Below, one piece after another: positions 1-261 of a stretch of DNA of 5,741 bases; position 1 is the first letter of the stretch; every line of letters begins with the position of its first letter. Origin of the DNA: a virus. A program made the position numbers and the translations under genes. Under the pieces are notes generated by a model, which saw only the letters and a list, made by a program, of their open reading frames with translations, ran no database searches and was not told the DNA's origin. The stretch is taken from positions 1 through 5,741 of IMG/VR virus record IMGVR_UViG_3300045988_016256; one strand, given 5' to 3'.

Positions 1-55
1 TTGTCAAGCCCTCTTAGTGCATTTTATTTTTCCCAATCGAATGCTCTTGCGTCTC
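1..55. repeat. Terminal direct repeat, left copy. It is identical to 5687..5741 and represents the assembly overlap of a circular genome.
   Basis: TTGTCAAGCCCTCTTAGTGCATTTTATTTTTCCCAATCGAATGCTCTTGCGTCTC occurs at both window ends with 55/55 identity, read by eye. A hairpin and an ORF tail are only complete when the ends are joined. The unit length is 5,686 nt. Confidence 0.9.
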
Positions 56-245
56 CAGTTTTTAGGTCCGTCCATTCAAGCTTTGTGTAACAGTGTCCGT
101 CTGCATCAATGTAGTCTATTAGTTCGTAGTAGTTTTTGCCGCTTTCTGCTTGTCCGTAGATTTCGAGTTTTGCTATGGTGTTTTCGTTCAGTCTAGGCTT
201 TCTTATTTTTATTACCTGCCTTTCTTTGATTATATTATACCACAT
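24..245 (-). CDS. Hypothetical 73-aa protein (orphan accessory ORF); the start codon is uncertain.
   Basis: For:
- The ORF is on the same strand as all recognised genes, with ATG at 245..243 and TAA at 26..24.
- An intrinsic terminator follows 9 nt after the stop and spans the circular junction.
- The composition is non-repetitive and protein-like (KLEIYGQAESGKNYYELIDYIDADGHCYTKLEWTDLKTGD).

Against:
- There is no SD upstream (ATTCCAAAAATG), although the recognised genes here have one.
- The ATG lies inside the spacer of a consensus promoter whose predicted +1 (about 227) is downstream of it.
- There is no other in-frame ATG, GTG or TTG.

No family recognised. Confidence 0.4.
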   Translation of the reverse strand: MWYNIIKERQVIKIRKPRLNENTIAKLEIYGQAESGKNYYELIDYIDADGHCYTKLEWTDLKTGDARAFDWEK

Positions 246-261
246 TTTTGGAATTTGTCAA
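234..261 (-). promoter_or_regulatory. Consensus sigma70/sigmaA-type promoter with an extended -10 element.
   Basis: The minus strand reads CTC-TTGACA-AATTCCAAAAATG-TGG-TATAAT-ATAATCA.
- The -35 is TTGACA (261..256), followed by a 16-nt spacer.
- The TG extension is at 242..241.
- The -10 is TATAAT (239..234).
- The predicted +1 is near A227.

All 14 consensus positions match. Confidence 0.65.

Follow-up and report, generated by a model that had tools for sequence, protein, structure and literature searches.

A putative accessory-gene cassette with exchangeable cargo in a gokushovirus genome

In this work, we analyzed a stretch of 5,741 nucleotides (nt) of viral DNA (IMG/VR record IMGVR_UViG_3300045988_016256, positions 1 to 5,741; hereafter the window) and, specifically, a unit at one end of it that is made up of a consensus promoter, a short leader, an open reading frame (ORF) of 73 amino acids (aa) at 245..24 and a terminator. 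The window holds a circular genome of 5686 nt, as its bases 1-55 recur at 5687-5741, and the minus strand carries every recognizable gene of that genome; all elements described below lie on this strand, unless otherwise indicated, and their coordinates are written from high to low. A preliminary description had pointed out that the promoter sits on the start codon of the 73-aa ORF and had offered three readings of it: an ORF translated from transcripts reading through from the replication gene VP4, a non-coding RNA or leader, or an ORF with a non-canonical start. The results presented here make it very probable that the unit serves a human-gut gokushovirus as a monocistronic accessory-gene cassette, whose real start codon position is 206..204, so that over-calling of the ORF is the ordinary explanation for a promoter that sits on a start codon.

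Promoter, leader and terminator

The predicted promoter consists of the −35 hexamer TTGACA (261..256) and, 16 nt further on, the extended −10 element TGgTATAAT (242..234, with TG at 242..241 and TATAAT at 239..234), both located by scanning. It matches all 12 hexamer positions plus the TG, that is, the 14 of 14 positions previously claimed for it, and the genome has no second site of this kind; base composition predicts about 1e-4 sites of this quality on both strands, a value that matches the chance estimate of the preliminary description. Promoter-like sites as a class are not in excess genome-wide (7 versus 5.3 expected after shuffling), and it is the perfect match and its conservation alone that carry weight for this prediction. 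Among 20 related loci in which the promoter is borne directly upstream of the gene, TTGACA is present in 19, TATAAT in 19, the 16-nt spacer in 18 and TGn in 17, while the middle of the spacer varies freely. Fixed hexamers around a variable mid-spacer are the pattern expected of an evolving promoter, and the hexamers, a spacer of 16-18 nt and the optional TGn that define sigma-70/sigma-A promoters are all found here.

From the position of the −10 box, transcription is predicted to start at A227 or A226 and to yield the 21-nt leader AAAGAAAGGCAGGTAATAAAA (227..207). Two Shine-Dalgarno (SD)-like motifs are found in it, GAAAGG (224..219) and AGGT (217..214), the latter 7 nt before codon 14 of the ORF. 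The leader is near-invariant in the relatives, where it has the conserved form ATAATCA[A/C]AGAAAGG, and a near-identical leader also stands ahead of unrelated genes that occupy the same place, as described below.

At the other end of the unit, scanning and folding located an intrinsic terminator (5701..5675) that spans the circular junction, its bases 5687-5701 being identical to 1-15. It is formed by the hairpin AAGAGGGCTT-GAC-AAGCCCTCTT plus TTTT (5701..5679), with a stem of 10 base pairs (bp), 5 of them GC, and by a T-run (5680..5675). The 82 nt around it fold with −24.1 kcal/mol (z-score −4.5), and the relatives keep the terminator through compensatory stem changes (GGG/CCC, GAG/CTC, TAG/CTA) and T-runs of 5-12, so that the GC-rich hairpin, the U-run and the compensatory changes characteristic of intrinsic terminators are all observed. 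About 239 nt separate position 227 from the T-run, in line with the strong terminator that had been noted about 240 nt downstream, across the junction.

A candidate for the next promoter can be read from the sequence within and beyond this terminator (5693..5665): its −35 hexamer TTGACA lies in the loop of the hairpin (5693..5688) and is followed, after 17 nt, by TGaTACAAC with the −10 hexamer at 5670..5665. This overlapping layout recurs in relatives, and in four of them (L009, L030, L012 and L024) it is followed, beyond the terminator, by an SD and a further small gene (MYDRAYYEL...). A second site, with TAGACA, 16 nt and TACAAT and a small conserved hairpin in the spacer, lies some 30 nt past the first (5655..5628). 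The two sites are candidate promoters of the structural operon, a function suggested by their sequence and position.

Exchange of cargo among related gokushoviruses

The small gene within the unit is referred to hereafter as gene B (206..24; 60 codons at 206..27 and a TAA stop at 26..24), and the region around it, bounded by the VP4 stop and VP5, was compared in the eight genomes of GenBank closest to the window (81-93% identity). KT264788 is collinear with the window and is the sole carrier of an intact gene B among the eight. KT264789 (L002, junction 3924/3925) has lost 156 nt (window 247..92), and with them the −10 box, the leader and 38 codons. The promoter (TTGACA-16 nt-TGgTATAAT), an SD-bearing leader and the terminator are retained in KT264790, which has the unrelated cargo genes X1 (61 aa) and X2 (56 aa) between them, whereas MG945657 keeps the promoter and has gene A only. 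In PV067914, MG945381, MG945780 and MG945138, window 367..5658 is replaced by a different module, in which TTGACA, 17 nt and TAAAAT are followed by an X1-like gene or its remnant.

The metagenomic relatives extend this picture, as the orders A-B, B-A and B-X2 all occur among them. In nine loci, gene A (about 60 aa) lies between gene B and a similar promoter, which reads TTGACT or TTAACT, 17 nt and TAGAAT in most of them and is followed by the near-identical leader; gene B is then preceded by AAGGAG. Moreover, the database protein P0066 is a fusion of a frame of the upstream non-coding region with the C-terminal half of protein B, and this fusion and the KT264789 deletion are, on comparison of the sequences, independent losses of gene B. 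Since the same promoter and terminator are found with other genes, with two genes or with a deletion, the site is, by its sequence, a moron-like hot spot where gut gokushoviruses exchange accessory mini-genes. This bears out the earlier suggestion of an autonomous, moron-type cassette running from promoter to terminator between the replication and structural modules, because relatives swap the cargo and keep the scaffold.

The constancy of the scaffold might also be taken to mean that the promoter is a fixed early promoter of the genome, serving read-through into the structural operon or activation of the origin, and that the small genes are passengers. The promoter and leader indeed outdo any cargo in conservation and persist when the cargo changes, and the TTGACA of the terminator loop aligns as the −35 of the following promoter. 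However, the cargo is followed by a conserved terminator with compensatory changes, and PV067914 and MG945381 have swapped the whole module, promoter included. These module swaps, together with the loss of the −10 box in KT264789, indicate that this promoter is dispensable for the phage, and we consider the passenger explanation improbable.

Morons were defined in tailed temperate phages, an example being gene 15 of HK97 (Cumby, Davidson & Maxwell 2012, PMC3594210). Like them, the cassette is extra DNA when compared with close relatives at the same site, has a promoter and a terminator of its own as judged from sequence and conservation, and carries small genes that pass from genome to genome and have no known function. 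Its GC content is also lower than that of the neighbouring genes (41.7% for the ORF and 37.9% for the cassette versus 46-51% for VP1-VP5), a modest gap, the adjoining non-coding DNA being low as well. It differs from morons in two respects: the carrier is a 5.7-kb single-stranded DNA (ssDNA) microvirus to which expression from a repressed prophage would probably not apply, and a fixed scaffold of promoter, leader and terminator exchanges its cargo alone, with no insertion of whole morons. There is no sign of lysogeny in the genome or in the scan of genome contigs: neither an integrase nor a repressor turned up among the ORFs of the genome, and VP1 patterns searched against 185,579 species genomes detected neither a prophage copy nor a relative.

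The small proteins of microviruses have been surveyed before; they average about 65 aa, are mostly of unknown function and patchily shared, and make up limited accessory repertoires (Kirchberger, Martinez & Ochman 2022, PMC9239249). Protein B resembles them in size, in its unknown function and in its patchy sharing. It differs from them in that its family is unannotated in KT264788, the only one of 50,697 GenBank phage records that encodes it. A search of that survey for the terms "promoter" and "intergenic" found neither of them, and protein B has no significant profile match to the known microvirus families represented in Pfam and PHROGs (VP1-VP5, peptidase, methyltransferase).

Coding evidence and start codon of gene B

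A homologue search of 5.8 billion proteins yielded 67 homologues of the predicted protein (68 aligned sequences with the query), and the DNA of 29 distinct loci was gathered from IMG/VR, metagenomes and GenBank. The median pairwise ratio of nonsynonymous to synonymous substitutions (dN/dS) is 0.31 (codons 2-58, 369 pairs) and lies below 1 in all but one pair, and none of 28 loci has a stop codon in the core. Together with the conserved start codon and ribosome-binding site described below, the intact frame and the low dN/dS show, by these comparisons, that the protein B family is protein-coding and under purifying selection. The protein has 60 aa in the window and 65 aa in most relatives, as a 5-nt insertion in the window shifts the stop five codons earlier; 60-aa forms occur elsewhere too (e.g. 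L024 and P0039). AlphaFold2, run with the family alignment, predicts a four-stranded antiparallel beta meander (mean predicted local distance difference test score, 81; predicted template modelling score, 0.60), a model that supports a folded protein.

These data bear directly on the second of the earlier readings, which takes the unit for a non-coding RNA or an attenuating leader of the structural operon and its ORF for a chance occurrence. In favor of this reading, no canonical start codon follows the predicted transcript start in this strain, and the terminator lies directly upstream of the promoter region of the structural operon. We nevertheless regard this reading as very unlikely, since the dN/dS values, the frame kept intact in 28 loci and the conserved ATG and SD all argue against it. 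Besides, relatives replace the region with unrelated protein-coding cargo, those without the whole unit retain the downstream promoter region, and Rfam gave no family at gathering score for the cassette unit. The comparison of dN/dS across relatives, which had been proposed as a check, comes out on the coding side, with both the ATG and the promoter conserved.

The 73-aa ORF opens with ATG TGG TAT AAT, and its codons 1-4 overlap the promoter exactly as had been described, the ATG (245..243) lying inside the spacer; an in-frame TGA within TTGACA shuts the ORF upstream. It is also true that no in-frame ATG, GTG or TTG is found downstream of 227 (206..27 included), since the translation contains neither Met nor Val and its Leu residues are encoded by CTN only. 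Codon 14, at 206..204, is ATA in the window. In the family, however, query position 14 is occupied by Met in 65 of the 68 aligned proteins, of which 47 have their N-terminus precisely at this residue (MRKPRLNENT). The corresponding codon is ATG in 27 of the 29 loci, the exceptions being the window and L010/L030, both with ATA. The distance from the predicted transcript start down to this codon is about 21 nt, and an SD-like motif is found 6-8 nt ahead of the codon in all loci (AAGG/AGGT, or AAGGAG behind gene A). The promoter is directly upstream of the gene in 20 of the 29 loci and a different gene in the other nine.

The 13 codons that precede this position (245..207, encoding MWYNIIKERQVIK) are translated spacer, −10 box and leader. 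We judged this extension by its in-frame stops and starts, as 1-nt indels in three loci blur an ungapped entropy comparison, and found its frame closed or startless in 9 of the 20 promoter-bearing loci: TGA or TAG occurs at codon −12 in L001, L017, L019, L020/L038 and L023, and no in-frame start is present in L013, L021 and L041. Furthermore, P0076, a diverged member of the family, still has MWYNIIKERQVIK-M, and the persistence of this stretch despite the divergence of the protein indicates that it is conserved as DNA and not as protein. By this evidence the 73-aa call is an artefact of ORF finding, 13 codons too long, and the real coding sequence begins at 206. The artefact has also entered the public protein databases, where at least 18 proteins begin with MWYNIIKERQVIK, the translated −10 box and leader, as gene calls of 74-78 aa; it was found as well at loci L027-L029 and L044, and database versions of gene A begin M[VI]EYN[HQ]RKE.. 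for the same reason.

The first of the earlier readings, a real 73-aa protein made from ATG 245 on transcripts that read through from VP4 or from the upstream non-coding region, is on this evidence highly improbable. An ATG or GTG is indeed found at that position, in frame, in 11 of the 20 promoter-bearing loci, and gene callers have produced the 74-78-aa versions for 18 database proteins. Yet ATG 245 is not preceded by an SD, the extension is non-coding in relatives (it is stopped or startless in nine of the promoter-bearing loci, and nine other loci have a different gene there), 47 of the 68 family proteins begin at position 14, and VP4 is followed by a hairpin and T-run (arms 690..675 and 665..650), with 457 nt of non-coding DNA between VP4 and the ATG. 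The absence of an SD, as previously stated, holds for ATG 245 and fails for the leader, which has AGGT 7 nt before codon 14 and GAAAGG further upstream. In a similar way, the idea of a non-canonical start proved right insofar as codon 14 is ATA, but had not considered that the ORF call itself was too long.

As regards this ATA, an identical 73-aa translation is found on contigs from JGI 3300029522, ENA ERZ917763 and ENA ERZ28596157. These are separate assemblies, at least two of them from other samples, which match the window at 99.95% and in whose DNA the ATA was verified. L010/L030, a second lineage whose identity over the cassette is only about 85%, has ATA too, and its sister L009 (97.7% identical) has ATG. 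ATA is a real allele, and the notion that a phage with a true ATG was misassembled or misread, although only a single base separates ATA from the family consensus, can practically be set aside. The window and L030 are near-identical around the start codon and differ in the flanks, and the two ATA alleles are possibly linked by recombination rather than independent.

In E. coli reporters, AUA and CUG initiate at about 1-2% of the AUG level (Hecht et al., bioRxiv 10.1101/063800). The case described here resembles the near-cognate starts of that study (AUA, AUU, AUC, CUG) in that ATA occupies a conserved ATG position behind an intact SD, and in that a conserved CTG start occurs elsewhere in the phage clade; it differs in that the 1-2% values come from E. 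coli and not from the host of this phage, and in that ATA is here a minority allele and not the conserved state. Provided that the architecture proposed above is correct, this analogy would give about an even chance that the strain uses a weak ATA start, and a null allele is a serious, if somewhat smaller, possibility; its output of protein B is probably a few percent of normal, or nil.

The CTG start just mentioned belongs to a 35-codon ORF, L-TIKEINALFNNIRKILAMLDKIYHAVEGNNEPEE (5586..5479), which heads the structural operon. Its apparent start codon (5586..5584) stands 7 nt after AGAGGTG (SD at 5600..5594) in the window. In 25 distinct relatives, the first gene of the structural operon has CTG at this position in 24 and TTG in one, 6-7 nt after AGGAGGTG or AGAGGTG. 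There is an in-frame TGA two codons upstream, synonymous changes are seen beyond the CTG, and the ORF is missed by ORF finders that accept ATG, GTG and TTG. This conserved CTG (TTG once) behind a strong SD makes near-cognate initiation plausible in the clade.

Searches for relatives of protein B outside its own family returned nothing that would point to a function. Pfam gave no match to it and nothing usable for the other cargo proteins, and PHROGs gave nothing usable for any of them, the only match for B being PHROG 8677 (E = 0.009-0.019 over 22 residues). A profile search of PDB gave a chance match only (E = 3.7), Foldseek against PDB nothing at E ≤ 0.001, and BFVD, searched with the model, a sole match that is a member of the same family. 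An exhaustive hidden Markov model search covering 1.84 billion cluster representatives found 12 clusters, of which two are large repeat proteins and the others proteins of at most 88 aa. The two repeat proteins, P0073 (2647 aa) and P0077 (a leucine-rich-repeat protein), were rejected as repeat or low-complexity noise, as they match a stretch of 20-30 residues multiple times and do not represent homology. The segment YIDADGHCYT was considered as a YD/Rhs-type repeat and dropped for want of Pfam support. The profile and structure searches of the small protein that had been proposed earlier have thus produced neither a known homologue nor a fold match.

Several points weigh against our interpretation of the unit. 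First, dN/dS between the window and its two nearest relatives is 0.84 and 1.05, values that stem from very few substitutions. In addition, the transcript start, the 3' end and the strength of the promoter in the host are predictions, and the use of sigma-70/sigma-A and of SDs is assumed from the GGAGG-type SDs that precede other genes of the phage. Besides, a genome with an ATA start may yield no protein at all. Finally, with no relative in Pfam, PHROGs, PDB or BFVD outside the family, the function of protein B is a guess.

Genome setting and proposed role of the cassette

The remaining genes include the VP4 replication initiator at 1722..703, the VP2 pilot protein at 2561..1722, the VP1 capsid protein at 4328..2607 and the VP3 scaffold protein at 4822..4325, in addition to VP5/ORF5 and several small ORFs. 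The nearest GenBank records are gokushoviruses from human, monkey and pig faeces, the closest being Gokushovirus WZ-2015a KT264788 and KT264789 (about 92% identity).

In the non-coding region after VP4, six exact copies of TGTTGAA are found, all on the gene strand and in three pairs 8-9 nt apart (window 379-394, 444-458 and 529-543), near TGTGGAWAA-like motifs. By chance 1.1 copies would be expected, and one of 200 shuffles reaches six. The pairs, which relatives have too (L026), may be iterons that bind a protein near the origin. The same region contains an imperfect alternating-GC palindrome at 594-632, ATGCACGTGCGTGCGCG-ATTA-CGTGCGCGCGCGTGCAT, which may be an origin or packaging structure. 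The hairpin that directly follows the VP4 stop has 16 bp (650-665/675-690) and is succeeded by TATTTTATT on the minus strand; it looks like a VP4 terminator. For the region of the palindrome and this hairpin (594-690), Rfam gave a sub-threshold chance match only. Between VP1 and VP2, another strong hairpin with a T-run (2568..2592 on the minus strand; 11 pairs, 8 of them GC) directly precedes the ATG of VP2, for which no SD is present. As a possible internal attenuator, this hairpin would set the proportion of capsid transcripts to pilot and replication transcripts.

Two further small ORFs were noticed. The 63-aa ORF at 5340..5149 is matched by PHROG 10695 (39 aa) over residues 25-63 only, and near-identical contigs call a 39-aa gene within it, so that it has probably been over-called as well; its very basic peptide, MAKRSKVRKSKDAK..., is probably a DNA-binding protein. 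The other is a 38-codon ORF, MNVMIAVGAGATIIAMCSAAFALIAMGIDIIKNWRKSK (5152..5036, with GTG at 5152 and ATG at 5143), which gene calling also recovers on the near-identical contigs L045 and L046. Its peptide is hydrophobic and single-pass-like, has a basic tail and is a candidate membrane or lysis peptide.

The hypervariable region of the DNA pilot protein of microviruses reportedly confers superinfection exclusion, and it lies inside VP2. The cassette shares with it the character of a variable, non-essential determinant in gokushovirus-like genomes that is probably involved in phage-phage or phage-host conflict. The cassette is, in contrast, a separate predicted transcription unit within a non-coding region.

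Altogether, the accessory-gene cassette proposed here would work as follows. Once the ssDNA genome has become double-stranded, the consensus promoter (261..234) would fire constitutively with the RNA polymerase of the host carrying its housekeeping sigma factor. Transcription would then run from about A227 to the hairpin and U-run across the junction (about 5675) and produce an mRNA of about 239 nt, in which ribosomes would bind AGGT and GAAAGG of the leader and initiate 7 nt further on, at 206..204, ATG 245 being part of the promoter spacer and not a start. The product would be a soluble all-beta protein, of 60 aa in this strain, where the ATA start would reduce its output to a few percent or abolish it. 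The cassette would fill a slot open to replacement, flanked by the VP4-proximal non-coding region and the promoter of the structural operon, from which relatives would express unrelated small genes by means of the same promoter, leader and terminator. Since protein B is small, an ORFan, strongly promoted and rapidly exchanged, our guess is that it acts as a non-essential early factor in host interaction, anti-defence or exclusion.

On this interpretation, a size-constrained ssDNA phage of 5.7 kb spends about 5% of its genome on a strongly promoted, insulated slot. It is tempting to speculate, though we hold this wider idea to be doubtful, that gut gokushoviruses keep a fixed expression socket into which at least five unrelated ORFan families (B, A, X1, X2 and the MYDRAYYEL type) are swapped as factors of early counter-defence, host takeover or exclusion, in the manner of the anti-defence hot spots of tailed phages, and that near-cognate starts, namely the conserved CTG at the head of the structural operon and the ATA of the cassette in this strain, tune expression in the clade. 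The change from ATG to ATA in gene B and the conserved CTG start of the structural operon offer natural test cases for near-cognate initiation, and the exchanged cargo provides a concrete set of tiny proteins for tests of phage-host and phage-phage conflict in a group of viruses that is abundant in the human gut.

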